From an uncultured Spirochaetota bacterium (GTDB taxonomy: Bacteria; Spirochaetota; Spirochaetia; SZUA-6; Fen-1364), in contig CAVUXE010000003.1 in NCBI GenBank assembly GCA_963745235.1, forward strand, positions 81,257 through 145,256: 64,000 nt of DNA, read 5' to 3'. Positions 33,804-58,319 of this stretch are shown here, piece by piece (position 1 is the first letter of the stretch; every line of letters begins with the position of its first letter). Below the pieces are notes generated by a model that did no database searches, had not been told where the DNA came from, and saw nothing but the letters and a program-made list of their open reading frames with translations. A program made the translations under genes and the position numbers.

Positions 33804-35574
33804 CTACACCCGCTCCCTCGCGACGTACTTCGTGTGGAGCAGATGGTGGGATTTCTCCCCGAGGGGCTTGTGAAGGTATTGATCGTAGATTGCCTTCACC
33901 TCGGGGTTGTTGTGAGACTTGCGGATGGGTTTCCCCTCGTCCTCCTTGTAGATGGCGGCGATCCGGGCTTTGCGCACGTCATCCGTAGTGAGCCGCGGCT
34001 GACCGCCGCCGCCGATGCACCCACCCGGGCACGTCATGACCTCGATGAAGTGATATTGCTCGCCGGAGTGAATCCGCTCGATGAGCTTCCGGGCGTTCCC
34101 CAGGCCGTGCGCCACGCCGACACGCACCGTCACGCCCTCCAGGAAGGACCATTCGGGCACGGTTCCTTCGATCTTCACTGCGGCTTCCTTGATCCCCTGC
34201 AGCCCGGCGATGGGAGCAATGTGCAGGTTCTCGAAAGGCAGGGTCCTTCCGGTCACGATCTCGTACACGGTTCGCAGGGCAGCTTCCATCACGCCGCCGG
34301 TGTTGGCGAAGATGTCCGCCGCTCCCGACGACGCGCCCAGGATGCTGTCCATGGCGCCATCCGGCAGGCTCGTGAAATCTATCCCGGCCTGCTTGATCAT
34401 ACGCCCCAGCTCACGGGTGGTGAGGACCACGTCAACGTCACGCGCGCCGCTCGCGCACATCTCGGGCCTCTGGGACTCGTACTTCTTGGCCGTGCAGGGC
34501 ATGATCGAGACCACGAACATGTCTTCGGGTTTCTTCCCGATCTTCTCTGCAAAGTAGGTCTTTGCCACGGCGCCGAACATCTGCTGCGGAGACTTGCACG
34601 TCGAGATGTTCGGCAGGATGTCGGGCCAGAAGTGCTCCGCGTACCTGATCCACCCGGGCGAGCAGCTGGTGAACATGGGAAGCGCCACCTGCTTCTTGTC
34701 CACGAGCGCTCCCTTGAGGCGCGTCAGCAGCTCCGTTCCTTCCTCGATAATGGTCAGGTCCGCGGTGAAGTTCGTGTCGAACACCCGGTCGAACCCCATC
34801 TGCCGGAGCGCGGTGACCATCTTGCCCGTGACGAGCGTTCCCGGCGCATAGCCGAAGCACTCACCCAGGGCGGCCCGGATGGCGGGAGCGGTCTGAACCA
34901 CCACGGTCTTCTTCGGGTCGTCCAATGCCTCCCACACGCTGGCAATCTCGTCGCGCTCGCTGATTGCGCCCACGGGGCACACGGCGGCGCACTGTCCGCA
35001 TTGCACGCAGACCACCTCGGAGAGCGGCTGCGCGAACGCCGGGGCGATCATGGCCTTGAAGCCCCTCCCCTGCGGGAAGATGGCCCCCACTCCCTGCGTC
35101 TCCCCGCACACCGTGACGCAGCGCCGGCAGGACACGCACTTGGCGGTGTCACGCACGAGCGCCGGAGTGCTCAGCGTCGGTCATGCGCCTGCTCTTCGCT
35201 CCGGCGAAGGTGACCTGGCGGATGCCCAGGTCACTCGCAATGGCCTGCAGCTCGCAGTCGACGTTGCGGTCGCAGGTCTGGCAGTCCCCTTCGTGGTCGG
35301 AGAGGATGAGCTCAACCACGGTTCGCCGCGCGTTCCTGGCCCGGGGAGAGTTGGTTTGCACCTCCATTCCCTCCGCCGCCATGGTCACGCAGGAGGGCAT
35401 CAAGGTCTTTGCGCCTTTCACCTCCACCAGGCACACGCGGCAGCTCCCGATGGCCTGCACGCTCTTGAGGTAGCACAGGGACGGGATCTTGATCCCCGCC
35501 AGCCGGGCGGCTTCCAGCAGGTTCGTCCCGGCCGGGACCTGGATCTTCCTGTTGTCGATGGTCAAAGCTGGCAT
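33804..35574 (-). CDS. hydA: group A3-type [FeFe]-hydrogenase catalytic subunit (frameshift ~35175)
   Basis: N-terminal 2Fe-2S, HxxxC cluster, 2x4Fe-4S; FTSCSPGW, MPCTAKKYE, EVMTCPGGCIGGGGQP; small-subunit tail SHHLLHT. Confidence 0.93.
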
Positions 35575-35575
35575 G

Positions 35576-38500
35576 TCAGTTGGCTCCTTCTTCTCGATAG
35601 TCGCACCGCAGGCACCGCTTGCTCTCCGCGAGCGCGGCCCCGCACGGCAGCGTGAGCTCCACCTCCGCAAAGGTCCCGCTGCGCTTCGCAATCGGGATGA
35701 GCTTCACCGCCGGCCTGGCGCCCGCCACGGGATCCGCGTCCGGATCGAACTGCGCGTCAGACACGCGGCAGGTCCGCCACGGCGCATGACTCTCTCCCGT
35801 CAGGTACGCGTCGATTCCGGCAGCCGCTCTCTCCCCCGCGGCGATTGCCTCCACGACGGAGGAAGGGCCGCTGACGGCGTCACCCGCCGGCGAACACCCA
35901 GTCCACCGAGGTCTGTCCCGTGACCGGGTCAGCCCACAGGTACTCCCGCTCGTTCTGTTTCACCGCGACCCCGTCGAAGAGCGCGGAAGGCACGAGCTTC
36001 TGCCCGATGGCGGCGATGACCATGTCTGCCTCCAGGCCGGAAGTCGTTCTCGCCCTTTGCCACGGGTTTCCTGCGGCCCGTCCGGTCGAAATCACCAAGG
36101 TCCATTGTGCGGAACTTTACGGCCGTGAGCTTTTCACCCTTCCTCACAAGCTCCAGCGGAGCCGCAAGGAACTCGAAGCGCACGCCTTCCCTTTCCGCCT
36201 CTTCCACCTCTTCCGCGAAAGCCGGCATCTCCGCCCGCGTGCGTCGGTAAACCACCGTGGCGCTCTGTGCCCCCAACCGAAGGGCCGTGCGCGCCGCATC
36301 CACCGCCGCGTTCCCTCCCCCGATGACCACGACGTTCCTGCCGACCCTGGCTTTCGAGGTGAGGTTGTATTCCTTGAGGAACCCCAGCGCGTCCACGACT
36401 CCCTTCCCGTCTTCTCCGGCCATGCCGAGGCTCATTCCCTGGGGAGCGCCGACTCCGACGAACACGGCTTCGTATCCCTGCTCCTTGAGGCCGGCCAGCG
36501 TGAAGTCGGTCCCGAGCTTCTTCTTCGTCCTGATGGTCACGCCCATGTCGGCAATCATGTCGATCTCCCGGTCCAGGATGTCGCGCGGGAGGCGATACGC
36601 AGGGATGGCCTGCCGCAGCATGCCTCCTGGTTTGCTCTCAGCCTCGAACACCGTGGGCTTGTAGCCCAGGCGCGCCAGGAAGTACGCGCAGGAAAGGCCC
36701 GCGGGGCCGGCGCCGACAACCGCGATCTTCCGCTCGCCGTTCTTTCCGTCCGCAATGGGATCCGGGAGCTGGGGAGTCTTCTCCTGGTCCGACAGGAACC
36801 TCTTGACCGCTCGAACGGACAGGGGCTCGTCCAGCGTGGACCGCCGGCACTTGCCCTCGCAGGGGTGGAAACAGACCCGGGCGCAGACCCCGACGAACGG
36901 GTTTCTCTCCCGGTGCAGCTTGAGGGCCTCGTTGTAGCGCTTTTCGCCGGTGAGGCTCACGAAGCCCGGGACGTCCACGCCCGCGGGACACGCGTTCTGG
37001 CAGGGCGCCCGCACCAGCTCCGCGCACACCCCCGCGCGGCACTTGTGGTCCCTGATGTGCTCCACGAACTCATCGCGGAAGTAGCGGATGTTGGAGAGAA
37101 CCGGGTTCGGGGCGCCCTGCCCCAGGGCGCAGAGGGCCGTGTCCTGGATCGTCTTTCCCAGCTCGATGAGCCGCTCGATGTCCCCTTCCTCACCCTTCCC
37201 GGCGCAGATGCGGTCCAGGATCTCCAGCATCCTTCGCGTGCCGACCCGGCAGGGCGTGCACTTGCCGCAGGACTCGTCCTGCGTGAACTCCAGGAAGAAC
37301 CGGGCCATGTCCACCATGCAGGAGTCCTCGTCCATGACGATCAGGCCGCCGGACCCCATGATGGCGCCCAGCTGCACGATGGACTCGTAGTCGACGGGAA
37401 CGTTCAGGTGCTCCTTGGGGATGCGATCCGCCGGACGGTCCGCCCATCTGCGCCGCCTTGAACTTCTTCCCGTTGGGGATCCCGCCGCCAATGTCGTAGA
37501 TGATCTCCCCCAGCGGCACGCCCATGTTCACCTCGACAAGGCCGACGTTGTTCACCTTGCCGGTGAGCGCGAAGATCTTCGTCCCGGGGCTCTTCTCGGT
37601 CCCGACGGACCGGAACCAGGCCGCTCCGTTGGTGATGATGAGGGGAATGTTCGCCAGCGTCTCCACGTTGTTGAGCACCGACGGCTTCTCCCAGAGGCCC
37701 GCGTCGGACGGGAACGGCGGCCGCGGCCGCGGCTCTCCCCGCTTTCCTTCGATGGACCGCATGAGGGCCGTCTCTTCGCCGCAGACGAATGCGCCGGAAC
37801 CCCTGGCGATGTCGATGTCGAAGTCAAAGCCGGTGCCAAGGATGTCCGTGCCCAGGAGGCCACGCTCACGGCACTGGTTGATGGCAATGGTGAGCCGCTC
37901 GATTGCAAGCGGGTATTCCGCCCTGCAGTAGATGTATCCCTGGTGCGCGCCGATTGCCCGGGCGCCGATGATCATGCCTTCGATGACCGCGTGCGGATCG
38001 CTTTCCAGCACGCTCCTGTCCATGAACGCGCCCGGGTCTCCCTCGTCCGCGTTGCACAGGAAGTACTTGATCTCCGATTTCGAACGGGATGCGAACTCCC
38101 ACTTGGTGCCCGTGGGGAAGCCCGCACCGCCGCGGCCGCGAAGCCCCGACTTCTTGACCTCTTCCGTGATGCCCTGGGGAGTCATCTCGAGGAGCGCCTT
38201 TGCCGTCGCGATATAGCCCCCCCGCCCGATGTACTCCTCGATGCTCATGGCGGAGATCCTGCCCTTGTTGTGAAGCACGCGCAGGTTCTGCCGGGCAAAG
38301 AACGGGATATCGGCGTAGTGGGGGATCACTGCCTGCGTGATGGGATGGCGGAACATGAGCCTTTCCACCGGTCTCCCTTTCAGCACGTGCTCCTCAACGA
38401 GCTCCGCCATGTCCTCCGGCGTGAGCTTCTGATAGAAGAATCCACCCGGGTACACCACCATGATGGGGCCGCACGCGCAAAACCCGTTGCAGCCTGTCTG

Positions 38501-38674
38501 GACCACCGCCACCTCTCCCGTGGCGCGCGCATCATGCATGTCTTCAATGGAAACGGCATCCGTGAGCTCGTGCGCCGCCAGCTCCTTGACGAGCGCGTCG
38601 CGCACCCTTTGCGCTCCCGAGGAGACGCAGCCCGTGCCGAAGCACATGAGGAGATGCATCCGTGTCGTCTTCAT
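35576..38674 (-). CDS. hydB: HydB/NuoF-like FMN/NADH subunit fused to a GltD-like FAD/NADPH module (frameshifts ~37425, ~36030, ~35880)
   Basis: GRGGAGFPTG, NADEGDPGAFMDR, ESCGKCTPCR; then in frame PCQNACP...CARVC, GAGPAG, GGGNAAVD...YRR, RCLRC. Confidence 0.88.
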
Positions 38675-39093
38675 GCTCTTGCCCTCCCCTGCTTCTTCTC
38701 AGCGTCCGAGGGCTCGCTGCCCACGTACACGACATAGGCACCCGCCGACTTGCCCGCCAGGGTCTGATGGAAGACTTCCCTGACGGTCGCGCCGTCCAGG
38801 TGGCCGTACAGCACGGGCTGAGCGCCGAGGGTCTCCACTGTCATCACCGGCTCGTGCTCGCACGCCCCGATGCATCCCGAGGTGGTGAGCCTGATGTCGG
38901 TGCGGCCGCTCTTCTCCAGCTCTTCGGCCAGCGCGTTCACCACGTCCCTGGCTCCGCTTGCAATACCGCAGGTGCCCATATGCACGGTGAAGCACATCCT
39001 GTAGCCGTCCTCTCGCAGGGCCGCTTTCTTCTGCGCCTCGTCACGAATGGCCAGGATGTCCTGGAGACTCCGTATCTTTTTTGTCTCAGCCAT
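38671..39093 (-). CDS. thioredoxin-fold ferredoxin subunit (HydD/HndB-like)
   Basis: HMGTCGIASGA...SGCIGACEHEP. Confidence 0.88.
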   Translation of the reverse strand: MAETKKIRSLQDILAIRDEAQKKAALREDGYRMCFTVHMGTCGIASGARDVVNALAEELEKSGRTDIRLTTSGCIGACEHEPVMTVETLGAQPVLYGHLDGATVREVFHQTLAGKSAGAYVVYVGSEPSDAEKKQGRARA

Positions 39094-39715
39094 GGACCTT
39101 CACTCCCTTCTTTGCCGTCGCGCGGGCGCCCCTGGCCGCGGGCTTTCGTGGCCTGGCCGCTTTCCCCGGTTCAGCGGCGGCCGGCTCCCGGTAGCGCGCA
39201 AGTATCTCGCGGATCTTCGCCGGCCGCACGCGTTTGTGCACCTCTTCATCAATGGAGACGGCCGGCGCCAGGCCGCAGGCGCCGAAACAGCGGGCCACTT
39301 CGAGACTGAACATCCCGTCTTTCGTGGTTTCCCCCACCTCGATGCCGAGCTCCTTGCGCATGGCCTCCAGCACCTGCTTGCCGCCCCTCACGTAGCAGGC
39401 GGTCCCCAGGCAGACGCGGATCACGTGCCTGCCGCGCGGCTGCGTGGAGAAAAACGCGTAGAAGCCGACGACCCCCGCCACCTCGCTGTAGGACTTGCCC
39501 ATCTCCCGGGCAATCCTTTTCAGCACGTGCTCCGGCAGGAAGCCATAGATGCCCTGCGCCATCTGCAGCACGGGGATGAGGGCACCGGGCTTGTCCCGGT
39601 GCTCCGTCAACACCTCCCCGAGCCTGTCCTGCAGCTCGGCCTCGGTCGCCTGCCCGCAGCAGGCGTCGGAAACGCGCGGCATACCGCGCTGCGCCGCACC
39701 AGTCACCTCGTTCAT
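39086..39715 (-). CDS. hydC: HydC/NuoE-like [2Fe-2S] subunit
   Basis: LIPVLQMAQGIYGFLP, VCLGTACYVRG, RCFGACGLAP. Confidence 0.9.
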   Translation of the reverse strand: MNEVTGAAQRGMPRVSDACCGQATEAELQDRLGEVLTEHRDKPGALIPVLQMAQGIYGFLPEHVLKRIAREMGKSYSEVAGVVGFYAFFSTQPRGRHVIRVCLGTACYVRGGKQVLEAMRKELGIEVGETTKDGMFSLEVARCFGACGLAPAVSIDEEVHKRVRPAKIREILARYREPAAAEPGKAARPRKPAARGARATAKKGVKVHG

Positions 39716-39728
39716 GCTGTTCTCCTCT

Positions 39729-40274
39729 CTATCTGGTCACGTCCAGGGCGTCGAGCCCTTCGGCAATTTTCTCCCGCATGCGCCGCGCCAGGCCGATCTC
39801 CCCCCGCTGGCCCGCCGGCAGCGAACGGGCTATGTCCGTGGTGCTCACGCGCCATTCCCGGTCAGCCACCCGCAGCAGGCTGCGCAGCTCCACGCCCGGG
39901 TTCGTGCACACCACGGATGCAAGAGTCCCGGCGAGATCTCCCAGCGGGCTGCGGTCCACGCTGGAAAGAGGGATGCTCGCCTGGACGCTGAGCCCACCCA
40001 GCGGGGACCTGCCCAGCTGGAAGGTCCCACCGGCCTGCTCGGCGCGAAACTTGAAGAGGCTCAGGCCCAGCCCTGTTGTCTTTCCCTCCTTGGTGGAGAA
40101 GAAAGGGTCAGCGGCGACGTCTCCGGAGACGCTCAGGCCCGGACCATCGTCTTCCACGCGGATTGTCATGATGTCCCGGGACGGCTCTTCCTCCAGGGAC
40201 ACCGTGATGACCGCGGCGCCGGCACGGATGGAGTTCTCCAGCAGGTCGAGGATGTGCAGGGATATCTCACGCAA
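39729..40274 (-). CDS. stand-alone GHKL/HATPase kinase of hydrogenase operons
   Basis: LREISLHILDLLENSIRAGA, DDGPG, DPFFSTK, GLGLS, DRSPLGD; TTG start; no HisKA domain. Confidence 0.85.
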   Translation of the reverse strand: MREISLHILDLLENSIRAGAAVITVSLEEEPSRDIMTIRVEDDGPGLSVSGDVAADPFFSTKEGKTTGLGLSLFKFRAEQAGGTFQLGRSPLGGLSVQASIPLSSVDRSPLGDLAGTLASVVCTNPGVELRSLLRVADREWRVSTTDIARSLPAGQRGEIGLARRMREKIAEGLDALDVTR

Positions 40275-41028
40275 AGGAGCACCTCCTCCCATCCGCGCCC
40301 CGGAGGGCCAGGGCAAGCTCCGCAAAGGCGGGCTCGCGAACGTCCAGCACGGTAAAGCCTGACCCGATGTCGCTGAGGAAGTGCCCGTCCGAGGAGCACA
40401 GGAGCGGCAGCCCGTGCTCCTGCCACGCCGAGGCCGTGCCCCGCGCCGCTCCCGCCGCCGACACCTCGAGGCCGTCGAACGGCACGTCGGGGGGAAGGAA
40501 GCCGAGCTGGCCGGGCACGCTGAAGCTGCGCCTGTCCATGTGCGCGGCCACGGCAAGCCCGCCATGTCTATGAATCAGCGTCACGGCGTCGCACAGGCTG
40601 AAGAGGCTCGCGGCCGCGAGCATCTTCGGCTCGATCCCCGTGATGTTTCCGTCCGCATCCACGAGCTCCTGCTCGCAGCTGCGGCTGCCGGACGCCGGGG
40701 CGCGGGACAACAACGGCCGCCAGGCGGGAAGCCCCTCCCGCACCTCCTCTGATGCCGCGAAAGCGGCTGCTTCGTCCGGGAAGAAGCCCAGGACGTGGAC
40801 TTCCTCCCGGGTGGTGATCTCCATCCCGGGAATGACACGGGGGCCGCCGAGTGACTCGGAGGCCTTCCTGACCGCAAGGACATTCCCGGCGCTGTTGTGG
40901 TCGCACACCGCTATCATCGCCATCCCCTTTTCCATTGCTTCACGGACGATGGCGCGGGGCCGCATCTGCCGCGACGCGCAGGGAGAAAGGACCGTGTGGA
41001 TGTGCAGGTCCGCGGCGCATCGGATCAT
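40267..41028 (-). CDS. PHP-domain phosphoesterase
   Basis: DLHIHT, CDHN, EEVH, AAH, SDGH. Confidence 0.88.
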   Translation of the reverse strand: MIRCAADLHIHTVLSPCASRQMRPRAIVREAMEKGMAMIAVCDHNSAGNVLAVRKASESLGGPRVIPGMEITTREEVHVLGFFPDEAAAFAASEEVREGLPAWRPLLSRAPASGSRSCEQELVDADGNITGIEPKMLAAASLFSLCDAVTLIHRHGGLAVAAHMDRRSFSVPGQLGFLPPDVPFDGLEVSAAGAARGTASAWQEHGLPLLCSSDGHFLSDIGSGFTVLDVREPAFAELALALRGADGRRCSFA

Positions 41029-41381
41029 CCCTTCGTTTTTCCTCGAAGCCCCAGCGCGTAGAGCTTCCCCGCCGTGTCGAAGGTCGACTCCCGGGTGGCG
41101 AACAGGCTGATTTTCTCCGCGGCCGCCCTGGCGCGCACGTCCGCGGGAGGCCTCATTCCCGAGGCAAAAACAACCGCCGCAAGGCCGGCATGGACGGCTA
41201 CCGCCACGACATTCATGTGAACCTGGATGGTGATGAGCAATCCGCCGGCCGGAGCGTTGGCAAGCACGTCGCTGAGGAGGTCGGAGGCGTGCGCCGCATC
41301 CACGTTTCCCGCTTCGTCCATGGGAAGCTCGGTGGTGAGGTTCTCCAGGCCGAGTGCGTCCGCGATCTGTCTCAGCTTCAT
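41025..41381 (-). CDS. DRTGG-domain protein
   Basis: SDLLSDVLANA...ITIQVHMNVVAVA. Confidence 0.85.
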   Translation of the reverse strand: MKLRQIADALGLENLTTELPMDEAGNVDAAHASDLLSDVLANAPAGGLLITIQVHMNVVAVAVHAGLAAVVFASGMRPPADVRARAAAEKISLFATRESTFDTAGKLYALGLRGKTKG

Positions 41382-42943
41382 CTGTGCTTCTCCGTGAATG
41401 GGCAATCTGCCCGGTCTGCCCGGCCCATGACGACATCCTCCGCGAATGCCGCGCAGGAGGGAGCGCCGCAGGAGCCGCAGTCCCTGCCGGGCAGGGAGCG
41501 CGTTTCCCCGTCTATGCGGGAGAGCTTCCGAATTGCCTCACCCATGGCGGCATCCAGCCTCAGGCCCGGACGCTGCGCGAAAGGCATTGCCCGCGCGGCG
41601 ACCCCCGCAGGCACGCCCGGCGTCGCAGGAACGGTCTGCCACATGCCGGCGAGCTCCGGCTGCGAGCCAAGGAGAGGGGATGCGGAGCATCCTCCCGCGC
41701 AGAAGCGAAGGTCCAGGACGGCCGCGCGGCCCAGCGCTCCGGTCTCAGCGCGGGAAAGGACCCTCATCACGCTGCGGGCACCGCTTGCAGCCAGCTCGCC
41801 GGGCTGCAGGGACGCGAGGGGGGGAACGGTGACACCCAGGGGGCGACGGACGGCAGGCTGGACGTCCAGAAGAGGCCGGATGGCTGCCTTCAAAGCAGCC
41901 GGAGAAACGACTGTCAGCCTTTCCGTGAGGCTGGACCGGGCGCACTCCCCGTATTGTCCCGGGCATGCGGCCACAAGGAATACTGGACGCAAAGGGAACT
42001 CCTCGCAGGCTGTTTCGGCTGGTGAATGAAAGACGCAAAGATTCGGAATGAGGGAGGGGAACCTGCTTTCGATCACCGCCGCAACAGGCGGACATAGCGG
42101 AGGGATTCGAGGGAGAGGGAGCTCCCGTGCCGCGGCTTCGCGCCGGGCCTCCGCCAGAAGCGACTCCTCCCACTCCTCGAGCAGCCTCATCTCGGTGAAC
42201 CCGAGCTCGCGCAGCGCGGAGAGAACCTGCTCCGGGGGGCGGATGCCGAAAAGGGCAGCGAGCAGCCCGCTGGGTGCAAGGAGAAGTGCGTCCGCCGGGA
42301 CACCCGGCAGGGGCGCGCGCGGGATGTCAAAGGCCCTGTCAGGGCACTCCTCGATGCACGCAGTGCAGCCGATGCACAGGTGCTCCAGGAGAACGGGGCG
42401 CCGGTCCCGGGCGCGAATTGCTCCCACGGGGCAGGCAAAGATGCATCTCCGGCAGCCTCTGCAGCGATCCGTGTCCACCACCAGGGGTGTTGACGAAACG
42501 GGAGCCTGTGCCGGAGAGGGCGAGCCCGTCCCGAAGAGAATCGTGGACCTGATGCGCGTGCCTCGGCCCACCCTGGTCTCGATCTGGAAATGGTCGCTGT
42601 TTCGACGGATATTCGGAAGGCCGAGGCCGGCTCCGAACCCCATCTGCCGGGCCTGCTCGGAGGCCGTGGACCAGCCCTCCTGCAAGGCAAGCTCGACATC
42701 GGGTATCCCCGGGCCCTCGTCAGCAACCTCCAGGTCGAGCTTCGTCTCATCCACGCGGGCCCACAGGGTGCCGGTGCGGGCGTGGATGACCACGTTCATC
42801 TCCGCTTCGTAGGCGGCAATCATTGCGCGTCGCAGGACGGAGGCATCCACGCCGAGCTTCGAAAGCTGCTCCTTGAGCTTCCGCGCCGCAAGGCCGGCGG
42901 AATCGAAGTCCCCTCCCGCAATTCGAAAGCTCAGCGTGATCAT
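41378..42943 (-). CDS. RsbT-like Ser/Thr kinase fused to 2x[4Fe-4S], a degenerate [FeFe]-hydrogenase domain and an FeS domain
   Basis: YEAEMNVVIHA, DEGPGIPDV, GFGAGLGLPNI; CRGCRRCIFACP/CIGCTACIEECP; LCPP, AACPG, CAGGC; LPGRDCGSCGAPSC. Confidence 0.85.
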   Translation of the reverse strand: MITLSFRIAGGDFDSAGLAARKLKEQLSKLGVDASVLRRAMIAAYEAEMNVVIHARTGTLWARVDETKLDLEVADEGPGIPDVELALQEGWSTASEQARQMGFGAGLGLPNIRRNSDHFQIETRVGRGTRIRSTILFGTGSPSPAQAPVSSTPLVVDTDRCRGCRRCIFACPVGAIRARDRRPVLLEHLCIGCTACIEECPDRAFDIPRAPLPGVPADALLLAPSGLLAALFGIRPPEQVLSALRELGFTEMRLLEEWEESLLAEARREAAARELPLPRIPPLCPPVAAVIESRFPSLIPNLCVFHSPAETACEEFPLRPVFLVAACPGQYGECARSSLTERLTVVSPAALKAAIRPLLDVQPAVRRPLGVTVPPLASLQPGELAASGARSVMRVLSRAETGALGRAAVLDLRFCAGGCSASPLLGSQPELAGMWQTVPATPGVPAGVAARAMPFAQRPGLRLDAAMGEAIRKLSRIDGETRSLPGRDCGSCGAPSCAAFAEDVVMGRADRADCPFTEKHR

Positions 42944-43293
42944 TGCGGCGGCACCTTCTCCGCGCCCAGGCACTGCGCGGCGCGCGCGCAAAGGTTTTCA
43001 CGGCTTGCCCGCGATACCAGGAGCGCGGCGCCGGCTTCGCGGGCGAGTGCCACGACCCCCGCGTCAGGTTCCTTTCCATCAGAAAGACAGATCCCCGGAA
43101 CGTCCATCAGCTCCGCCACCCGGATAAGCTGACCATTGGCAAGCGAGGTGATAAGAAGTGTGCCGGGACCGGCGTTTGCGATGAGGTCGCTCATTGTCGC
43201 TCCGCCGTAGACGCGGAGGACATCCGGGTTTGCCGGTCCGCTCGGGACGACCAGGCGGGCTTCGATGGCGCTAGCAAGCTGTTCGACCTTCAT
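42940..43293 (-). CDS. DRTGG-domain protein (first gene of the hydrogenase operon)
   Basis: MSDLIANAGPGTLLITSLAN...IRVAELMD; ATGA overlap with the next gene. Confidence 0.8.
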   Translation of the reverse strand: MKVEQLASAIEARLVVPSGPANPDVLRVYGGATMSDLIANAGPGTLLITSLANGQLIRVAELMDVPGICLSDGKEPDAGVVALAREAGAALLVSRASRENLCARAAQCLGAEKVPPQ

Positions 43294-43332
43294 GAAGCCT
43301 TGATCCAATTCGACAGGATCGCTTCGATATAT

Positions 43333-43349
43333 TGCAAGCGTTGTGCCAA
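43333..43349 (-). promoter_or_regulatory. sigma-54 (-24/-12) promoter
   Basis: Minus strand reads TTGGCACAACGCTTGCA (TGGCAC-N5-TTGC), ~40 bp upstream of the operon start. Confidence 0.85.
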
Positions 43350-43499
43350 TCGTGAATTCAGTCTCGATCAAGTTGGCGGGCTTCGAGATCGAAATATCAC
43401 AATGGGATCAAGTCTTTCCGCTGTAATGAGATGTGATCGTCAGGCTTCAGGGGGAATTCCGGCATTCAAAAAGGGCTAAACGTCCTCAGGCATCGTTTG

Positions 43500-43533
43500 T
43501 GGGCATATCTTGCACATGGGCGACTTATGCACA
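43500..43533. promoter_or_regulatory. two adjacent 17-bp imperfect palindromes, candidate enhancer (UAS) sites
   Basis: TGGGCATATCTTGCACA and TGGGCGACTTATGCACA (TGTGC-N7-GCCCA on minus strand), ~150-185 bp upstream of the -24 box. Confidence 0.6.
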
Positions 43534-43547
43534 CCCGGGCGCGTCAG

Positions 43548-45458
43548 CTAGTCTGCTCTGCCGAGGGCGTTCTGAACAGCGGAAATGAGGGCCTGAAGGC
43601 TGTGGGGCTTTTCTACAAGGCCAAGTGCGCCCTCGCGAAGGAGCTCCTGGGCGGAGCTGTCGATGACATGGCCAGTCGTGATGAGCACGCGCGCCTGGGG
43701 ACTGGCTTCCCTGAGAAGCCGCAGGCACTCCTTCCCGCCCATGCCCGGCATGACCAGGTCCAGCACCACCAGGTCGATGCCGATGCCATTTCCGAATCTC
43801 GCCAGGCCTTCCCTGCCGTCCCTGGCGGTAACCACCGCGTACCCGCAGCTTTCCAGCATCCGTGTGATCACCTGCCGCACCTGGGGATCATCATCGACAA
43901 CGAGGATGGTGCCGTGGCCGCGGGAGAAGCCCTGCTCTGAAGCTCCCTGCGGGGAGGTCCCGTCCGTCTGTTCGCTGCGCTCGCTCAGCGGCAGGAAGAG
44001 CTCAAACGTGGAGCCCTTTCCCGGAACGCTTGTCACCTCGATGAAGCCATTGTGGCTCGCGACGATTCCGTAGACCACGGCGAGCCCGAGCCCCGTGCCG
44101 CTGCGCACCGCCTTCGTGGTGACAAAGGGAATGAACAGTCTCTCGAGCATCTCCGGCGGCATTCCGACGCCCGTGTCGCGAACCGACAGCACGACATACT
44201 TTCCCGGCCGCCCGCTCACGTATTTTGCCGCCTCTTTCTCCGTCAGCTCCACCACGGACGTCCCGATGGTGAGAGTGCCGCCGGCAATTCCTTCCGCCCG
44301 CTCCATCATTGCATCCCGGGCGTTCAGGCAAAGATTGACAAGCACCTGGCTCATCTGGTTGGGATCAGCCTCGATATTCACGGCGTCGGGAGAGAAAGAC
44401 AGCTCGATGGCGATCTTTGGCGGAAAGGTCCTCTTGATGAGCTGCCACGTCTCACGGGCGATGTTGTTCAACGACACGGTCTGGCGCGTCCCCGGTGACT
44501 GCCGGGTGAAGAGGCGAAGCTGGCGGGTCAGCGCGGCGCCGCGGTCCACCGCGGCCCGCACCTGGATCAGGTCCTCGTACATCACGGTATCCCGCGGCGC
44601 TTCGATCAGGAGAAGCTCCATGTAGCCGTTGATGGCGGTGAGGAGGTTGTTGAAGTCGTGGGCGATCCCGCCGGCCAGCATTCCCAGGGCGTCCATCTTC
44701 TGGACCTGGAGGATCTGGGCCTGGAGTCTCTTGCGCTCGGTGATGTCGACCACGGAGGACATCAGGCCAATGGCCCTGCTTTCCTCGTTTCTGACCACGG
44801 AAGCGGACAGCTCCACGCTGAACACGACGCCGTCCTTGCGGCGCGCCACAAGCTCCCCCCGCCACCCCCCCGAGCGGGGAAGGAGCTGCACGATGTCGCG
44901 AGCTTTTTCCCCGACCCAGATGTCTCCCATGGGAGCGCCGATGGCTTCGGCGGCGGACGCGTAGCCCCACATCTGCAGGAACGCGGAGTTCACCCACGTG
45001 ATCTTCCCGTCAAGGTCCGCCAGCACGATCCCGTTGATCGAGGTATTGATGGCGTGATTCTTGATGAAGAGCTCCTGGCTCTGGCTTTCCAACGCGGCGG
45101 AGAGCGCGTGACGCAGCTGTTCCTGGTCCGTGAGAATCTGCTGCTCGCGGGATTTCATGAAACCTGCAAGAAGCGCCTCAATGAAGGCGTCGGCGGCCGT
45201 GAGCGATTCCTGATTCCGCAGCCGCGTGCTGAGAAGCAGGATCGTTCTTTCGCCGAGTCCCTCCCTGGCAAGCTTCTGGCCGACCCCGGACGGGTCGGCA
45301 GCCGGGTCCTTTTCGATGAACCCGAGGAAAGAGCCCGCAAGCTCCTGTCCGATCTCCAGAAGACGGCGCGGATGCAGGGAATACCGGTTCTCGAACGCCG
45401 ATTCACGCAGGCTCGAGCCGAGTGCATCCCCAAGAGTCTTCAGAGCGGACTCGGTCAT
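43548..45458 (-). CDS. hybrid histidine kinase (helical N-domain-PAS-HisKA-HATPase-REC)
   Basis: AGGIAHDFNNLL, NARDAM, GTGLGL, VVLDLVMP...EKP. Confidence 0.92.
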   Translation of the reverse strand: MTESALKTLGDALGSSLRESAFENRYSLHPRRLLEIGQELAGSFLGFIEKDPAADPSGVGQKLAREGLGERTILLLSTRLRNQESLTAADAFIEALLAGFMKSREQQILTDQEQLRHALSAALESQSQELFIKNHAINTSINGIVLADLDGKITWVNSAFLQMWGYASAAEAIGAPMGDIWVGEKARDIVQLLPRSGGWRGELVARRKDGVVFSVELSASVVRNEESRAIGLMSSVVDITERKRLQAQILQVQKMDALGMLAGGIAHDFNNLLTAINGYMELLLIEAPRDTVMYEDLIQVRAAVDRGAALTRQLRLFTRQSPGTRQTVSLNNIARETWQLIKRTFPPKIAIELSFSPDAVNIEADPNQMSQVLVNLCLNARDAMMERAEGIAGGTLTIGTSVVELTEKEAAKYVSGRPGKYVVLSVRDTGVGMPPEMLERLFIPFVTTKAVRSGTGLGLAVVYGIVASHNGFIEVTSVPGKGSTFELFLPLSERSEQTDGTSPQGASEQGFSRGHGTILVVDDDPQVRQVITRMLESCGYAVVTARDGREGLARFGNGIGIDLVVLDLVMPGMGGKECLRLLREASPQARVLITTGHVIDSSAQELLREGALGLVEKPHSLQALISAVQNALGRAD

Positions 45459-46249
45459 TTTTCCAGAATGACGCCCTGCATGGTCACGGAGTCCTGTTTC
45501 ATCGTTTCTTCCTCAACGGCCGTCTTCATGCCGATCCACTCTTCCAGGGGCAGGAAGCCGGGCTCCCTCACTCTCCATGGCCGTATCAGCTGCTGGAGAG
45601 TATCCAGGGGTCGGAACCTCATGGGTTGGCCGAGCCCCTTGTAGATGTTGAAGATCTCCTGCAGCGTGGGTGATATGGCCTCTCCCTGCAGGCACATGTC
45701 GCAGAGGAAGAGCCGGGAACCCGCATCCGCCCAGTCGTAGAGGGCTTTCATTGCATGGCCGATGGCATCGTCACTCAGAAAAAACGCGACTCCGTTGATG
45801 CCGAACGCGATCCTTCGGCTGGTTCCGAAAAACTCCGTGACCACGGGCGCGCCCAGGAGATCCTCCGGCGTGCCCACGTTGCAGGCGACGTAGCGTGCGT
45901 TGGGGTTGTCCTTCAGTATTTCCTGCCCGTACGCGACGGTGACGGGGTCGATGTCGGAATAGATGACCTTCGTGCCCGCCGGGGTGATCTGGTGGATGTG
46001 ATCGATTGTCGGCAGTCCCGAGGCAAAATCGATGAACTGGGTGTATCCATCCGCCGCGAGCCGTCTCACCGCCTCGCCAAGGAACCAGCGGATGAGCCGG
46101 AGAACTTTCGGGAGAAAAGGTGCCTGCTTGAGGACTTGCTGGGTCGCCTGTCTGTCCACGTCGAAATTGTGGTTTCCTCCCAGCATGAAGTCGTACATCC
46201 GGCCGGCGTTGGGCTTGCTCGAATCAGCGATTGACGCGTACTCAGGCAT
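45455..46249 (-). CDS. SAM-dependent methyltransferase (Methyltransf_19-like)
   Basis: PNAGRMYDFMLGGNHNFDVDR, QFIDFASGLPT, VIYSDIDP. Confidence 0.85.
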   Translation of the reverse strand: MPEYASIADSSKPNAGRMYDFMLGGNHNFDVDRQATQQVLKQAPFLPKVLRLIRWFLGEAVRRLAADGYTQFIDFASGLPTIDHIHQITPAGTKVIYSDIDPVTVAYGQEILKDNPNARYVACNVGTPEDLLGAPVVTEFFGTSRRIAFGINGVAFFLSDDAIGHAMKALYDWADAGSRLFLCDMCLQGEAISPTLQEIFNIYKGLGQPMRFRPLDTLQQLIRPWRVREPGFLPLEEWIGMKTAVEEETMKQDSVTMQGVILEK

Positions 46250-46324
46250 TGTGACTCCTCTTCCCCTCTCTCCAGTATCATCGCGGAAAAGGGGGCCCAT
46301 AGCAAGGTTCGCCGCACCTGGATG

Positions 46325-46351
46325 AAAAAGGCGGCGTCCGGCGTGGCCGCC
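46325..46351 (-). terminator. intrinsic terminator after the REC-FapA gene
   Basis: Minus strand GGCGGC-N10-GCCGCC-TTTTT. Confidence 0.6.
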
Positions 46352-46384
46352 CCGGGGGACAGGGTCACACGCGCGCGGCTGGAA

Positions 46385-48112
46385 TCAAGCTCTGCCCAGA
46401 CGCTGCGGGGTTATCACGTTGGAAGTCCTGTCCAGGACCAGGCGTACTCCGCTCATCGACTGGGCAACCGCGAAAGGCACATGGCAGAGCTCCACGAGCA
46501 CGCCACGGTGGATCTCCCCTGCTGCCGCGACAGTGGATTCCTTGTTCTTGTCCAGCAAGGCAGCAAGGCCTTTCGCGGAATCGCTCATCTTGTGCATTGC
46601 GGTCTTCAGATTGTCACGAGCCTGGAGAAGGTGCGGGTCCCCCTGCCCCCGAGCGGCAAGCCTGGCCTCCACGTCCTTGAGCGCGAGGCCGAGCTCCGCG
46701 TTCTTGTCCTTGATCCAGGCAAGCTTCTGCTGAACCCGGGAGTCTTCACCGCAGCAGATCTCGGTTCGAACGCCCGCGGGGCTTCCGATCTGGAAGGCGG
46801 TGACTCCTTTGACCGCATCGATCCTGCCGCCGATGATCACGCCCTTCGGCCCCGTGCAGACCGCACCGAGGGCCTTGATGGCTGAATTGAGGCAACCGGT
46901 GGTCAAAAGCACATCCCCCCCGGCCTCAACGGAGCAGTTCTCTATGAACTTGGCGCGGACCCGTCCGCCAACCTTCACAATGCTGCCCGGCCTTCCCAGG
47001 ATTCCCTGGTCCGTCTCCAGGTCGCCGCCGCAGGAAATCTCCGAGGCGTCGATGGTCCTGGCGCACGTGAGGGACCCTCCCGCCTTCACATTGAAGCCCT
47101 GCTTTATCTGGCCCCGCACGATGACGTCGCCGGGGAAGTCGATGTGCCCCGTTGAATAGTCCACGTCGCCGGAGATCTCCAGCACCTCGCTTACCCAGAA
47201 GGAATCCTCACCCAGCACGAACTTCCCGTCACACCCGGCCACTACCGAGTCCCCCTGAGCCAGGGTGTTCTTGCCCGGTCGAAGCGTCGCGCACGCGGTC
47301 CGGCCGTAGGCGACGGCGGCCCCTGTGACGTCGACACCGGCTGCGCCCTCCGTGCGGGGAGATACCCGCGCAAGGATGTCGCCTTTCTTGACGAGCTGGA
47401 AGGGGCTGAGCGCCTTGAAATCGATTGCCCTCGTCTCCGAGCTCTCGGGGGCCGCCTTCGTGAGCAGCGAGGGCTCGACGTCCAGGTGACGGTCGACCTC
47501 GTTCGAAGGCTTCTGGCCGTGCGCTATCTCTCTGTCGACGAGCGCCGTGCGCGACGTGTTGCAGGAAAGGATCGAAGAATTGACCAGGTCCCAGTCGATT
47601 CCGAAACGCACGCCTTTTGCCGTCAGAAGATCGCGCACTTCATCAAGCTCGATCCGCCCCGCGCCCGCGGCCGGGGCAGAGAAGCTGGCGACCGCGGTCA
47701 TGCGATCGTCGGAGATCCGCACCTCGACGCGGCGCTCCGGGCCTCCTGCTCTCTTCTGCTCCCGGGACCGGCTGAGCGCCATCTTCACCGTCGCTTCCAG
47801 CGACCTTTCTTCGATGGGCTTGAGAACGAACCCGAAGGGCTCTGTGGGAGTGTCGGAGAGGGAGCTCAGATGGACCGCGGGTATGCCGGTGGAATCCCTG
47901 ATCAGGCGCGCGGCATCCGTCCCGCTCATCGCGCCCGAAAGGTGCGCGCCAATGAGGACCAGGTCCGCCGCCAGGGTGACGGATTTTTCCGCGGCCTCCT
48001 CACCGGTGGCAAGAACGTCCGGGACCTCGTAGCCCAGTCTTTCCAGGCAGTCCTTGATAGCGAGTGCGACAGGTTCTTCGGCTTCAACGACGAGGATCCG
48101 GGCGCGGTCCAT
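46385..48112 (-). CDS. pseudo-receiver fused to FapA/DUF342
   Basis: N-terminal REC fold (RILVVEAE, DLVLIG, LKP); VKKGDILA, GVDVTG, GDVDYSTGHIDFPGDV, GVIIGG beta-helix. Confidence 0.85.
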   Translation of the reverse strand: MDRARILVVEAEEPVALAIKDCLERLGYEVPDVLATGEEAAEKSVTLAADLVLIGAHLSGAMSGTDAARLIRDSTGIPAVHLSSLSDTPTEPFGFVLKPIEERSLEATVKMALSRSREQKRAGGPERRVEVRISDDRMTAVASFSAPAAGAGRIELDEVRDLLTAKGVRFGIDWDLVNSSILSCNTSRTALVDREIAHGQKPSNEVDRHLDVEPSLLTKAAPESSETRAIDFKALSPFQLVKKGDILARVSPRTEGAAGVDVTGAAVAYGRTACATLRPGKNTLAQGDSVVAGCDGKFVLGEDSFWVSEVLEISGDVDYSTGHIDFPGDVIVRGQIKQGFNVKAGGSLTCARTIDASEISCGGDLETDQGILGRPGSIVKVGGRVRAKFIENCSVEAGGDVLLTTGCLNSAIKALGAVCTGPKGVIIGGRIDAVKGVTAFQIGSPAGVRTEICCGEDSRVQQKLAWIKDKNAELGLALKDVEARLAARGQGDPHLLQARDNLKTAMHKMSDSAKGLAALLDKNKESTVAAAGEIHRGVLVELCHVPFAVAQSMSGVRLVLDRTSNVITPQRLGRA

Positions 48113-48163
48113 GTGGCTCGACGCCTCCCGCTGCACCAAGCGTACCATCCGGGGCCCGCTTTT

Positions 48164-49557
48164 TCAGCCCCTGTAGCTCTCCCGCTCAAGCCCGTACTTC
48201 TTCATGCGCTCGTACAGCGCGCGCCGGGAGATGCCCAGGGACTGCCACGTTGCGTTGATTTCCCCCTTGTGGTCCTTCAGCGCCGCTTCGATGACTCTTC
48301 GCTCCACTTTCTCCAGCTCGTCGCGAAGGAGGCCCTCTCCCGGGGGGACCGAGAGGAGCCTGCCGGCATCGCCCATCATATCGGGAGAAAAACCTCCCGC
48401 CGTCCCGTCGCGGGAGGTGATCACCATCCGCTCCACGGCGTTCTTCAGCTCCCGCACGTTCCCGGGCCACGGGTAGCGCACCATGTCTGCAAGGGTCGCT
48501 TCCGGCACCGCGGGGACAGGAATGCCGTTCCTGTCTGAGGCCAGCTTGAGGAAGTGAGACGCCAGGAGCGTGATGTCTTCCGCTCTTTCCCGAAGGGGAG
48601 GAACGCGGATGCAGAGCACCATGATCCTGTGATAGAAGTCCTCCCGGATGGCCCCGGCTCTGACCTCCTCCGAGAGCTCCACGTTGGAAGCGCACACGAG
48701 CCTGATGTCGACCTTGCGCGGCTTGTCGCTGCCCAGGGCCTCCACGACTCCGTCGTCCAGCACGCGCAGGAGCTGCACTTGCGCGCGGGCGGAGATCGTC
48801 TCTATCTCATCAAGGAGGAGCGTGCCCCCGGATGCCATGACGAGCTTGCCCTCCCGCTGCTCCACCGCCCCCGTGAAAGAGCCCTTGGCGTGGCCGAAGA
48901 GCTCGCTTTCCAGCATGGTCTCGGGAAGGGCGCCCGCGTTCACCGGCACGAACGGGCCGTTGGACCGACGGCTCTGCGCGTGGATTGCCCGGGCAACCAG
49001 CTCCTTGCCGGCCCCTGTCTCTCCCAGGAGGAGCACCGGCACATCCGAGCGGGCAGCCGCCTCCACCTGGGCATAGACTTCCTGGATTGCCCGGCTGCGC
49101 CCTATCATGCCGAACCTGCCGTCCTCCCCGGGGAGCACAGCCGCAGCCGGCGCCGCAGGTCCCGCGCCTCACGGACCAGCCGGCTCTTCTCCACCGCCTT
49201 GGCAACGTAGGCCAGGAGGACGTCGTCGTCAAACGGCTTTTCCGCGAAATCGAAGGCGCCCGCTTTCAGGCAGCGCACCGCCATGGCGATGTCGCCATGC
49301 CCGGTGATCATGACAACAGGAGGCGCCGCGGCCATGGCCGTGATGTGCGCAAGGAACTCCTCCCCGTCCATTCCCGGCATCTTCACATCCGTTATGATGC
49401 ACATGGCCTCCGGCAGGCCGGGCCATGCCAGCGCGGCTTCCGCGGAGGAGAAGACCTCCGGCTGCCACCCGCGAAGGCGGAGCATCTGCCCGATGGAGTG
49501 CCGCGCGGCCTCGTCATCATCTATCACGACGATTGTCGAGCCTTCCTGCCCTGCCAT
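48164..49557 (-). CDS. sigma-54-dependent response regulator (DctD/NtrC-like bEBP; frameshift ~49135)
   Basis: REC (TDVKMP, TGHG, EKP), [38 protein letters not shown], Fis-type HTH. Confidence 0.92.
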
Positions 49558-50450
49558 CAGTTTCCGCCCCCCATCGCGTTCCGCCGGGCGCCGGGCAGGC
49601 GGATGCGGAACGTTGCACCCGTTCCGGGGGCCCCGGCGGCCTCGATCTCCCCCTTGTGGTCCTTGATGATGGCGCGGGAGATGGAAAGCCCGAGGCCGTG
49701 GCCTCCCTTGCGCGTCGTGTAGAAGGGCTGGAAGAGCTTCCGTGCCTGCTCTTCCGAGAAGCCTTTGCCCGTGTCGCGGATCTCGATCACCACGGGCAGC
49801 TCGGGTGTTCCGTCTCGCCGGCTTGTGACGCTGAGGCGCCTGTCTGCCGCGCCGTCCATGGCCTGGCGGGCGTTGGTGAGCAGGTTGAGGAAGACCTGGG
49901 CAAGCCTGATCCTGTCTCCCCAGACCGGAGGCAGGTCGGGCTCCAGGGAAAGGGAGAGCTCCACCTCGGAAAGCTTCATCTGGGGGACCAGGAACTCCAT
50001 GCACTCCCGCAGGACTCCGTTGATTTCCAGGATGGAGAAGGTAGTGTCCGACCTGCGGGTGAGCTCCCGCATCTGGTTGATGATCCGTGCCGCCCTGTCC
50101 ACCTGCTCCGAGATGAGGCGGAGGTTGCCCTTCACCTCCTCTTCGCTGCCTGCCTTTTTCTCGATCATGTAGAAGGCGTTGCGGGCATAGTTCCTGATGC
50201 CCGTCAGGGGCTGGTTGAGCTCGTGAGAGATCGAGGCAGCCATCTCCCCCAGCTCTGCCAGCCGCGTGGAATGCTCAAGCTGCTCTTCCTGCCTTCGACC
50301 CAGCTCGGAGAGCTCCCCCAGCTTCTCCTCGCTCTCGTGGCAGTCGCGGCGGGCGCGCGCAAGCGAACGGGAGAGTGAGGCGGCGCGGACGGACAGGACG
50401 ATGATCACCGTGACGGCCGCGAACAGGAGACTGAGAATGATTGCGCTCAG
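49557..50450 (-). CDS. DctB-like histidine kinase with a single TM and no sensor domain (start uncertain)
   Basis: LGEMAASISHELNQPL, LAQVFLNLLTNA, DTGKG, GLGLSIS; the inverted copy has ATG at the equivalent codon. Confidence 0.85.
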   Translation of the reverse strand: MSAIILSLLFAAVTVIIVLSVRAASLSRSLARARRDCHESEEKLGELSELGRRQEEQLEHSTRLAELGEMAASISHELNQPLTGIRNYARNAFYMIEKKAGSEEEVKGNLRLISEQVDRAARIINQMRELTRRSDTTFSILEINGVLRECMEFLVPQMKLSEVELSLSLEPDLPPVWGDRIRLAQVFLNLLTNARQAMDGAADRRLSVTSRRDGTPELPVVIEIRDTGKGFSEEQARKLFQPFYTTRKGGHGLGLSISRAIIKDHKGEIEAAGAPGTGATFRIRLPGARRNAMGGGN

Positions 50451-50549
50451 GAGTGAGTCGATGCGGAATTATACCCGGCAGGCGCAGCCGCTCTCAAGTG
50501 CCTTCTTGACACTGGGGCTGCCGACGTCACACCTTGCTCTCACGCGGGA

Positions 50550-52791: not shown

Positions 52792-52802
52792 AGCAAGGCG
52801 CC

Positions 52803-55861: not shown

Positions 55862-55957
55862 TCCCCGCGTGAGAGCAAGGTGTGACGCCGGACCCCGAGT
55901 GTCAAGAAGGCACTTGAGGGCGGCTGGCTCCCGGTATAATTCCGTATCGACTCACTC

Positions 55958-58269: not shown

Positions 58270-58319
58270 AAAAGCGGGCCCCGGATGGTACGCTGGTGCA
58301 GCGGGAGGCGTCGAGCCAC

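Follow-up and report, generated by a model that had tools for sequence, protein, structure and literature searches.

Putative sensory [FeFe]-hydrogenases belonging to groups C and D are suggested to control the electron-bifurcating hydrogenases of many anaerobes (PMC8163306, PMC3561251). The M2e or group D sensory type has two N-terminal [4Fe-4S] motifs, an H-domain and a C-terminal Cx2Cx4Cx16C motif, lacks a PAS domain and C299, has M353 exchanged for Ser or Thr, and has its gene upstream of a trimeric bifurcating hydrogenase (PMC8163306; Carere et al. 2012, PMC3561251). For TamHydS, the characterised member of this type, a 2026 follow-up reported that H2 does not reduce the C-terminal cluster and called the finding of interaction partners critical (PMC13104023). 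In HydDB, class C1 is named "histidine kinase-linked (putative)" (PMC5037454). In Hydrogenedentota, 53 proteins described in 2024 as "group C1" have P1-P3 motifs that are hardly detectable and carry a HATPase_C domain, which the best HydDB match lacks; 21 of the 53 adjoin group A3 hydrogenase genes, and a regulatory role was proposed (PMC11406978).

The gene described here lies in a stretch of 64,000 nt (the window) from an uncultured Spirochaetota bacterium (assembly GCA_963745235.1, contig CAVUXE010000003.1, positions 81,257-145,256 of the forward strand). The stretch is present in peat, soil and wetland metagenomes from at least 12 studies. In one frame the gene joins a SpoIIAB/RsbT-like GHKL Ser/Thr kinase domain to a hydrogenase-like module with iron-sulfur (FeS) motifs, and it precedes a hydrogenase operon on the minus strand. 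Its product is quite probably an FeS- or H2-responsive sensor kinase for that operon. The gene had been pointed out in an earlier note made from the letters of the window.

One reading frame for kinase and hydrogenase-like domain

The earlier note had read the gene as a single frame running from kinase through linker, two [4Fe-4S] motifs and a hydrogenase part to an FeS domain, and the stop-free open reading frame (ORF) of 521 aa with its Pfam and fold matches bears this out; every motif that the note had quoted was found by translation at its place. Table 1 lists the features of the gene and of its neighbours. ATG 42943 was taken as the start because homologues begin with MIT(L/M)S and because this ATG shares the sequence ATGA with the stop of the gene before it; a TTG at 42991 lengthens the frame by 16 codons. 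All Pfam matches of the fused protein exceeded the curated cut-offs: HATPase_c (36.5 bits) and HATPase_c_2 (35.7 bits) on residues 18-134, Fer4 (37.9 bits) in two stretches on the ferredoxin-type region, Fe_hyd_lg_C (28.7 bits) on residues 237-312, where only profile positions 27-105 of 245 were covered (79/245), and the FeS domain PF04060 (50.6 bits) at the C-terminus. No Pfam match to a PAS domain was found in the fused protein. The AlphaFold2 (AF2) model, built with 111 homologues, had a mean predicted local distance difference test score (pLDDT) of 89.7 and a predicted template modelling score of 0.89, and its weak block was the linker only (pLDDT 54 at residues 141-150), the length of which varies among homologues.

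Table 1. Positions of the fused gene, its parts and the neighbouring genes in the window
Feature	Position (nt)	Strand	Remarks
Fused sensor kinase gene (P0001)	41378..42943	-	521 aa, stop-free; GHKL kinase, linker, 2x[4Fe-4S], H-like domain, FeS domain
SpoIIAB/RsbT-like GHKL Ser/Thr kinase domain	42536..42943	-	Residues 1-136; Pfam, invariant boxes, fold match
P/S/A-rich flexible linker FGTGSPSPAQAPVSSTP	42485..42535	-	Residues 137-153; stands where split forms have stop, spacer and start
Two ferredoxin-type [4Fe-4S] motifs	42335..42481	-	Residues 155-203; C161, C164, C167, C171 and C190, C193, C196, C200
Shortened [FeFe]-hydrogenase H-domain	41624..42301	-	About residues 215-440; Pfam, hhalign, fold match
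H-domain cluster cysteine C284	42092-42094	-
H-domain cluster cysteine C327	41963-41965	-
H-domain cluster cysteine C415	41699-41701	-
H-domain cluster cysteine C419	41687-41689	-
Q330 at the P2 lysine position	41954-41956	-	Motif AACPGQ
C-terminal Cx2Cx4Cx16C FeS domain	41396..41494	-	Residues 484-516; C489, C492, C497, C514; motif CGSCGAPSC...C
Upstream DRTGG-fold protein	42940..43293	-	117 aa; invariant Ser35 in SDxMSDVLA; candidate kinase partner/substrate
Downstream DRTGG protein	41025..41381	-	118 aa; motif ASDLLSDVLA; ATGA overlaps at both ends
PHP-domain phosphoesterase	40267..41028	-	PHP and PHP_C matches; candidate phosphatase; ATG 41028 overlaps preceding stop
Second GHKL ATPase	39729..about 40292	-	HATPase_c 46.3 bits, without HisKA; start estimated
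NuoE-like	39086-39715	-	Pfam; hydrogenase operon (33804..39715)
Small 2Fe-2S protein	38671-39093	-	Pfam; hydrogenase operon
NuoF-like fused to GltD-like module (Fer4_20 + Pyr_redox_2)	about 35591-38674	-	Pfam; hydrogenase operon
HydA	33804 to about 35628	-	Pfam; hydrogenase operon

The kinase motifs are YEAEMNVVIHA (residues 45-55), DEGPG (75-79) and GFGAGLGLP (102-110). Across 111 sequences E46 and N50 of the N-box, D75, G77 and G79 of the G1 box (DxGxG) and G102, G104 and G106 of the G2 box (GxGxG) are invariant. In the AF2 model, residues 1-139 superpose on SpoIIAB (1th8, 1til and 1l0o) with Z 17.4-17.5 and a root-mean-square deviation (rmsd) of 1.9-2.5 A over 125-134 residues, at 21-22% identity. 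Of the eight ferredoxin-type cysteines, seven are invariant in 78/78 sequences and C164 is present in 76/78. The C-terminal FeS domain matches the N-terminus of the corrinoid/FeS protein 4djd_C, and its four cysteines are invariant.

In the hydrogenase-like part, C284 sits in PLCPP, C327 in AACPGQ, and C415 and C419 in CAGGC. C284 aligns with the second Cys of TSCCP in DdH, and L283 with the first, the proton-relay Cys. Residues 146 to about 460 of the model superpose on the [FeFe]-hydrogenases CbA5H, DdH and CpI with Z 22-24 and rmsd 3.2-3.5 A over 280-322 residues. This part had been called a degenerate domain and an H-domain remnant, a description that is not upheld: the fold is complete if shortened, its four cysteines and Q330 are invariant or nearly so, and the domain is under strong conservation rather than in decay.

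The contig is error-prone, and the fusion might accordingly be read as an assembly or indel artefact, or as a pseudogene, of a metagenome-assembled genome (MAG). Single-base indels in the same contig break the reading of HydA into two frames and that of NuoF-GltD into four. At 35175, 35885/35889 and 36035, exactly where the frame changes, the window has extra bases that contigs of up to three other studies lack, and these are assembly errors; the NuoF frame change at about 37415-37491 lies in a stretch that none of the listed contigs bridges. A relative (locus L012) has intact single ORFs of 1032 aa for NuoF-GltD and 612 aa for HydA. The contig also terminates in a 10.7-kb foldback, in which 53303-64000 is an inverted copy of 42411-53108 with 94.4% identity, 490 mismatches, 106 gap openings and a 194-bp loop; its right arm reaches the end of the contig, which coincides with the end of the window. 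Identity along the repeat is a mosaic, some 500-bp bins being identical and others about 15% different, and the ORFs of the right arm are frameshifted, among them the mirror copy of the fused gene, so the mirror copy with indels that the earlier note had described does exist. The repeat has the look of an assembly artefact of the foldback kind or of a mosaic of strains. For the fused gene itself, contigs of runs X1 and X3, from other studies, span the linker (42470-42540) with no gaps, and the contig of run X2 differs by two 3-nt deletions, at 42475 and 42492, which keep the frame; for this stretch, where the earlier note had proposed a check with raw reads, the independent contigs speak for one frame. 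The domain-architecture search, likewise proposed there, gave HATPase_c together with FeS in 118 of the best 120 database clusters, of which 105 also had Fe_hyd_lg_C (476-586 aa, 48-100% identity); the remaining two clusters are truncated. Homologues at 93%, 72% and lower identity have equal length and full coverage, 724 homologues were found among 8000 scored, and eight species-level loci have single fused ORFs. An artefactual or pseudogene origin is hardly credible, and for the left-arm copy of the fused gene it is already refuted. Short contigs of metatranscriptome run X20 match parts of the operon, including 41358-41543, which is a hint of transcription only, as such libraries can contain DNA.

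Fused and split relatives and the di-iron position

Related loci were collected by a pattern scan with one genome per species, which gave at least 589 stretches encoding relatives; the best 80 were kept for locus counts. Eight of these are intact fusions (L009-L016), one is a fusion cut by a contig end (L040), one is frameshifted (L031) and 70 are split, in agreement with the earlier statement that the two parts are normally adjacent genes. The intact fusions come from Spirochaetia/Spirochaetaceae, from Thermoleophilia and other Actinomycetota, and from one Brocadiia MAG. The split loci come from Bacillota, Bacteroidota, Smithella and other Thermodesulfobacteriota, Synergistaceae and Acidobacteriota, and are laid out as a kinase ORF of about 140 aa, a TAA, TAG or TGA stop, a short spacer with a ribosome-binding site, and a new start of the Fer4/H/FeS protein. 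Nearly all split pairs share one frame; this is a selection effect and not biology, because loci were ranked by single tblastn high-scoring segment pairs. Programmed read-through or selenocysteine at the split-form stop was considered and rejected, since the stops are mixed and each is followed by a ribosome-binding site and a start. In a library of 1.84 billion representatives at 50% identity, 138 proteins matched at E ≤ 1e-30; among the best 150 representatives, 45 were of at least 475 aa and matched nearly the whole query in one stretch. In the 201 genomes of the window's own phylum, 56 matches were found at E ≤ 1e-20, comprising four full-length or nearly full-length fusions (G000, G113, G120 and G148), two split forms and about 50 matches to the kinase part only. 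The fused architecture is widespread, not rare, and has been little studied.

A tree of the Fer4/H/FeS part (108 sequences, 39 fused and 69 split; 404 columns) was made using FastTree and IQ-TREE. One long branch parts all 39 fused from all 69 split sequences (FastTree support 1.0, length 1.36; IQ-TREE Shimodaira-Hasegawa-like approximate likelihood ratio 100, length 1.32). The four H-cluster-type cysteines (C284, C327, C415 and C419) and the four of the C-terminal domain are present in 78/78 sequences. The sequences around them differ between the clades (Table 2).

Table 2. H-domain features of the split and fused clades
Feature	Split clade	Fused clade
P2 motif	(S/T)PCxxK	A(A/S)CPxQ
Residue at the P2 lysine position (sequences in the tree)	K 64/69; others E, R or I	Q 38/39, E 1/39
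Two residues before the P2 Cys	(S/T)P 66/69	AA, AS, VS and similar; A325-A326 in the window
P3 motif	ACxGGCxGG	CxxGCxGSP
Profile against canonical HydA	Whole H-domain, probability 99.9, E 5e-34; AP(S/A) and an SGGE loop matching TGGVMEA	hhalign match through P3, probability 98.6, E 1e-15; TGGVMEA loop without counterpart; xPRG in place of AP(A/S)

The ligands of the H-cluster are C300, C355, C499 and C503, and Lys358 contacts a cyanide and holds the [2Fe] site. At position 330, which corresponds to that lysine, 119 of 121 fused proteins have Gln and two have Leu; a further 47 more distant fused representatives have no Lys (0/47), being mostly Gln and otherwise Glu, Cys, Leu, His, Gly or Ala. 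The spacing of P2 and P3 in the fused protein is only 88 residues. The first Cys of TSCCP is kept in neither clade, and position 283 varies (Leu, Val, Phe and others) across the 121 fused proteins. The exchange of M353 for Ser or Thr that marks M2e is replaced in the fused protein by Ala-Ala before C327. The earlier note had stated that the four cluster cysteines survive and that the P2 lysine is gone; both statements hold, and as judged from the alignments the lysine loss is a trait of the whole fused clade, accompanied by further apparent losses around the di-iron position. The loss of Lys, the missing counterpart of TGGVMEA and the altered AP(A/S) favour a domain that keeps the [4Fe-4S] site and not the di-iron site, in line with the proposal of the earlier note. 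That the fused H-like domain lacks a di-iron site is reasonably likely on this sequence evidence.

The split relatives fit the M2e/group D (TamHydS-type) description on every listed point, so far as sequences can tell. The novelty that the earlier note had claimed was overstated, in that the architecture is frequent in databases, the unfused form fits M2e/group D, and HATPase_C on a group C1 protein is in print (PMC11406978).

Neighbouring genes and proposed mode of action

On the minus strand the order of genes is DRTGG, fusion, DRTGG, PHP, second HATPase_c, NuoE, 2Fe-2S, NuoF-GltD and HydA. The first four are coupled by ATGA stop/start overlaps, the first of them formed by the upstream DRTGG stop and the kinase ATG. 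The upstream DRTGG protein had no Pfam match; its AF2 model (pLDDT 93.3) matches the DRTGG protein 2ioj with a template modelling score of 0.78, so that an assignment as STAS-like was rejected. The downstream protein matched DRTGG with 24.7 bits, just under the 25.2-bit cut-off (E 2e-5). Neighbours were counted using tblastn, with loci that had enough flank as denominators. Kept among the loci were the upstream DRTGG gene (63/80), the PHP gene (62/74), the second HATPase gene (45/66), NuoE (40/58), NuoF (36/55) and HydA (40/52), and the downstream DRTGG gene was found in 35/75. A GltD-like extension of NuoF was present in 7 of 10 fused loci, the other three being without flank, vs 1 of 70 split loci; the loci are related, so that these counts do not amount to a statistical test.

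In HydA, residues about 163-169 (frame 33804-35156, minus strand) read TSCSPGW vs the textbook TSCCPxW. A sequencing error was rejected as the cause, as the same motif is found in A. woodii HydA1 (7q4v) and in the consensus of 31 HydAs from related loci. A second sensor of 670 aa (31698-33710, minus strand), with Fer4, H-domain, FeS, HisKA and HATPase_c, stands on the far side of the same operon; its H-domain matches the whole Pfam profile with 151.7 bits and keeps PCIAKK, and a receiver-domain protein (31319-31804, minus strand) adjoins it. Upstream of the cassette, at 43548-49138 on the minus strand, are a PAS-HisKA-HATPase-receiver hybrid kinase, a Methyltransf_19 protein, a receiver-FapA protein and a sigma-54 activator.

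The kinase and its DRTGG and PHP neighbours also occur with another sensor. The roughly 50 kinase-only matches in the phylum sit in frames of about 270-350 aa. In genome G016 (locus L089, 2380-4357), a CBS-CBS-HATPase_c protein of 305 aa is followed by a DRTGG protein (TSDLLSDVMA) and then by a PHP protein; this locus, the sole CBS locus scanned with Pfam, has no hydrogenase genes nearby. Among 13 such loci (L089 and L091-L102), searched by tblastn with a single query at E ≤ 1e-3 so that the counts are lower bounds, the CBS part was found in at least 10, an adjacent DRTGG gene in at least 9 and a PHP gene in at least 6. The Ser of (S/A)Dx(M/L)SDV(L/M) is invariant in 39 upstream DRTGG proteins, and this Ser motif lies within 700 nt upstream of the kinase in 61/80 loci vs 0 on the opposite strand. 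In the model of the upstream protein, Ser35 is at the start of a helix (residues 34-40).

As a package, the explanation that we slightly favour is a cytoplasmic FeS/redox sensor kinase without an H-cluster that acts via the DRTGG and PHP proteins on the hydrogenase operon. The C-terminal three quarters of the protein would descend from putative M2e/group D sensory [FeFe]-hydrogenases and would have been fused to a formerly separate upstream GHKL ATPase/kinase. The fused clade keeps the four cysteines that would bind the [4Fe-4S] part of an H-cluster, whereas the features that hold the di-iron part (the Lys, the Met/Ser-Pro before the P2 Cys, the relay Cys and the TGGVMEA counterpart) are lost; the protein is predicted to carry at most four [4Fe-4S] clusters and to lack a [2Fe] site. 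Such a protein would report redox state (the poise of reduced ferredoxin or NAD(P)H, the hydrogenase's own chain, or oxidative cluster damage) and not H2 binding. The state of the clusters would gate, within one polypeptide, a SpoIIAB-like Ser/Thr kinase, the ATP-binding and catalytic boxes of which are intact. The kinase would phosphorylate the flanking DRTGG proteins on the invariant Ser of SDxMSDVLA, and the PHP phosphoesterase would remove the phosphate as the opposing phosphatase; PHP-type protein phosphatases are known. The output would adjust the expression or the activity of the adjacent NuoE/NuoF-GltD/HydA hydrogenase. In all this, we infer the cofactor content, signal, kinase activity, substrate and regulatory target of the fused protein, as well as the direct kinase control by the metallo-domain that the earlier note had suggested. 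That the DRTGG proteins are the kinase substrates is, taken by itself, possible, with a chance somewhat short of even. A broader proposal is more tentative and is rather unlikely to hold in full: kinase, DRTGG and PHP would form an undescribed partner-switching-like phosphorylation cassette in which DRTGG, as phospho-Ser of SDxMSDVLA, replaces STAS, PHP is the phosphatase and the sensor is exchangeable, being a pair of CBS domains in many Spirochaetota and here an FeS module of four clusters derived from a hydrogenase; the fused module, its di-iron site gone, would be purely a redox sensor, paired specifically with hydrogenase operons in which NuoF has a GltD-like NAD(P)H module.

Several points weigh against the redox-sensor explanation, and a number of them lend themselves to its main rival, a genuine H2 sensor with an unusual but complete H-cluster as in TamHydS/TmHydS, in which H2 binding or oxidation switches the fused kinase. 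The argument leans on the role of Lys358 in hydrogenases, and the di-iron pocket of the fused protein was judged from alignments. The near-invariant Gln at the Lys position (119/121) shows continued selection on the site and no drift of the pocket, which could serve a modified ligand. None of the four H-cluster cysteines varies, HydG and HydF are both encoded in the genome (matches above the cut-off), so that an H-cluster could be built, and, as with the M2e sensors, the gene is upstream of a hydrogenase operon. TamHydS binds an H-cluster and interconverts H+ and H2 slowly despite the loss of C299, M353 and M497 (PMC8163306). The loci and proteins compared are the best-scoring ones and are not independent of each other, and the indel errors nearby in the contig also count on this side. 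An H2 sensor is nevertheless unlikely, since Lys is present in 64/69 split sequences and in the aligned canonical HydAs vs 0/121 and 0/47 fused ones, TGGVMEA has no counterpart in the profile alignment, AP(A/S) is altered, and the Pfam match (79/245 positions, 28.7 bits) is weaker than those of all five other Fe_hyd_lg_C proteins of the genome.

Two further points, both on the kinase output, weigh against the redox-sensor explanation. No Pfam match to STAS was found among the 18 window proteins scanned, a search that did not extend to the rest of the genome, and the DRTGG fold differs from the STAS fold used by known SpoIIAB/RsbT-type kinases. The absence of a STAS substrate among the scanned neighbours would suit a GHKL domain that is an ATP-dependent binding switch, with anti-sigma-like sequestration, or a protein that, taken whole, serves the hydrogenase complex as an accessory subunit for electron transfer or assembly; binding is also a mode of action of SpoIIAB-type proteins (1l0o shows the complex with a sigma factor), and the cassette stands in one run with the structural genes, its own genes being mutually translation-coupled. 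These possibilities are very unlikely, as the catalytic Glu and Asn of the N-box and both G-boxes are invariant and a phosphoesterase partner fits reversible phosphorylation. The recurrence of kinase, DRTGG and PHP with a CBS sensor, in L089 (one locus scanned with Pfam) away from hydrogenase genes, argues for a signalling cassette and not a hydrogenase subunit.

The in-frame fusion of this sensor type to the adjacent GHKL kinase counts as Rosetta-stone evidence for that kinase being the group D partner, and the conserved DRTGG and PHP neighbours suggest what acts downstream. If the cassette proposal is true, the fusion would also identify the signalling partner that has long been sought for group D sensory hydrogenases. 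The consistent loss of Lys and loop in the fused clade offers a natural pair for comparison, a sensor that has an H-cluster and one that would lack it. With this design the cell can probably adjust its hydrogen-making enzymes to redox state, which is of practical interest to those who wish to understand, or to engineer, how H2 production is controlled in fermenters and in anaerobes of peat and soil.

Comparison with known systems

Sensory hydrogenase-like proteins tied to GHKL ATPases are an already known kind. The fused protein resembles the TamHydS type in its two N-terminal [4Fe-4S] motifs, H-domain and C-terminal Cx2Cx4Cx16C motif, in the lack of PAS and relay Cys, in its place upstream of a multimeric group A hydrogenase and in its tie to a "histidine kinase-like ATPase"; the split relatives show in addition the M353-to-Ser/Thr hallmark ((S/T)PC in 66/69). 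It differs in that the ATPase/kinase is fused in frame, that Gln stands for the Lys of PCxxK and Ala-Ala for Ser/Thr-Pro, and that TGGVMEA is without counterpart. An H-cluster and H2 turnover, both present in TamHydS, are doubtful for the fused protein. The comparison with TamHydS was made on its published features. With TmHydS and group C (M2f), also proposed as regulators of bifurcating hydrogenases in the available accounts, it shares Fer4, H-domain, a C-terminal four-Cys cluster and the absence of the relay Cys; the output of group C, however, is a C-terminal PAS domain, whereas the fused protein has an N-terminal GHKL kinase and a di-iron pocket that appears further reduced.

The Hydrogenedentota group C1 proteins likewise carry HATPase_C on a hydrogenase-like protein, at an end not stated in the available text of PMC11406978. 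They belong to another phylum, and that text does not report the Lys loss, the clade structure or the DRTGG/PHP cassette. Matched by description, they appear to be the same architecture, so that the fusion is already in print in passing. A DRTGG/PHP cassette with a hydrogenase, or RsbT with [FeFe], was not found in the searchable literature, most subscription journals excepted, and none of the listed papers on the wider set of domains (with kinase and CBS) dealt with this cassette, going by titles and the openings of abstracts. Papers that link anti-sigma factors with bifurcating enzymes were omics studies of C. thermocellum, Tepidanaerobacter and the like, and PMC4374699 held nothing of relevance. 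Three leads are apparently new within that literature, subscription journals and supplements excepted: that the fused forms are one clade with uniform loss of Lys and loop, that this clade pairs with GltD-type NuoF operons, and that the kinase belongs to a DRTGG/PHP cassette also found with CBS sensors.

The kinase domain has the GHKL fold, the length of about 140 residues and the N, G1 and G2 boxes of SpoIIAB, RsbW and RsbT. Known members of that family act on STAS-domain partners and sigma factors, whereas the neighbours here are DRTGG and PHP proteins and the kinase is covalently joined to a sensor module (FeS/H-domain here, CBS in relatives). Nar1/CIAO3 (IOP1) is likewise a hydrogenase-like scaffold with FeS sites, and hydrogenase activity is absent from Nar1/CIAO3 according to the available text of PMC12621388. 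It differs as a eukaryotic factor of cytosolic FeS assembly (CIA), with no kinase, Cx2Cx4Cx16C domain or hydrogenase operon, and the resemblance is one of scaffold reuse, not family membership; the motif losses of the fused clade would suit a hydrogenase-like fold that has FeS sites and no di-iron site. The closest comparison within the window is with the second sensor, which has the same Fer4/H/FeS layout and a kinase and flanks the same hydrogenase operon; its kinase, however, is a C-terminal histidine kinase of the classical kind, beside which a response regulator is encoded, and its H-domain is of full profile length with PCIAKK.

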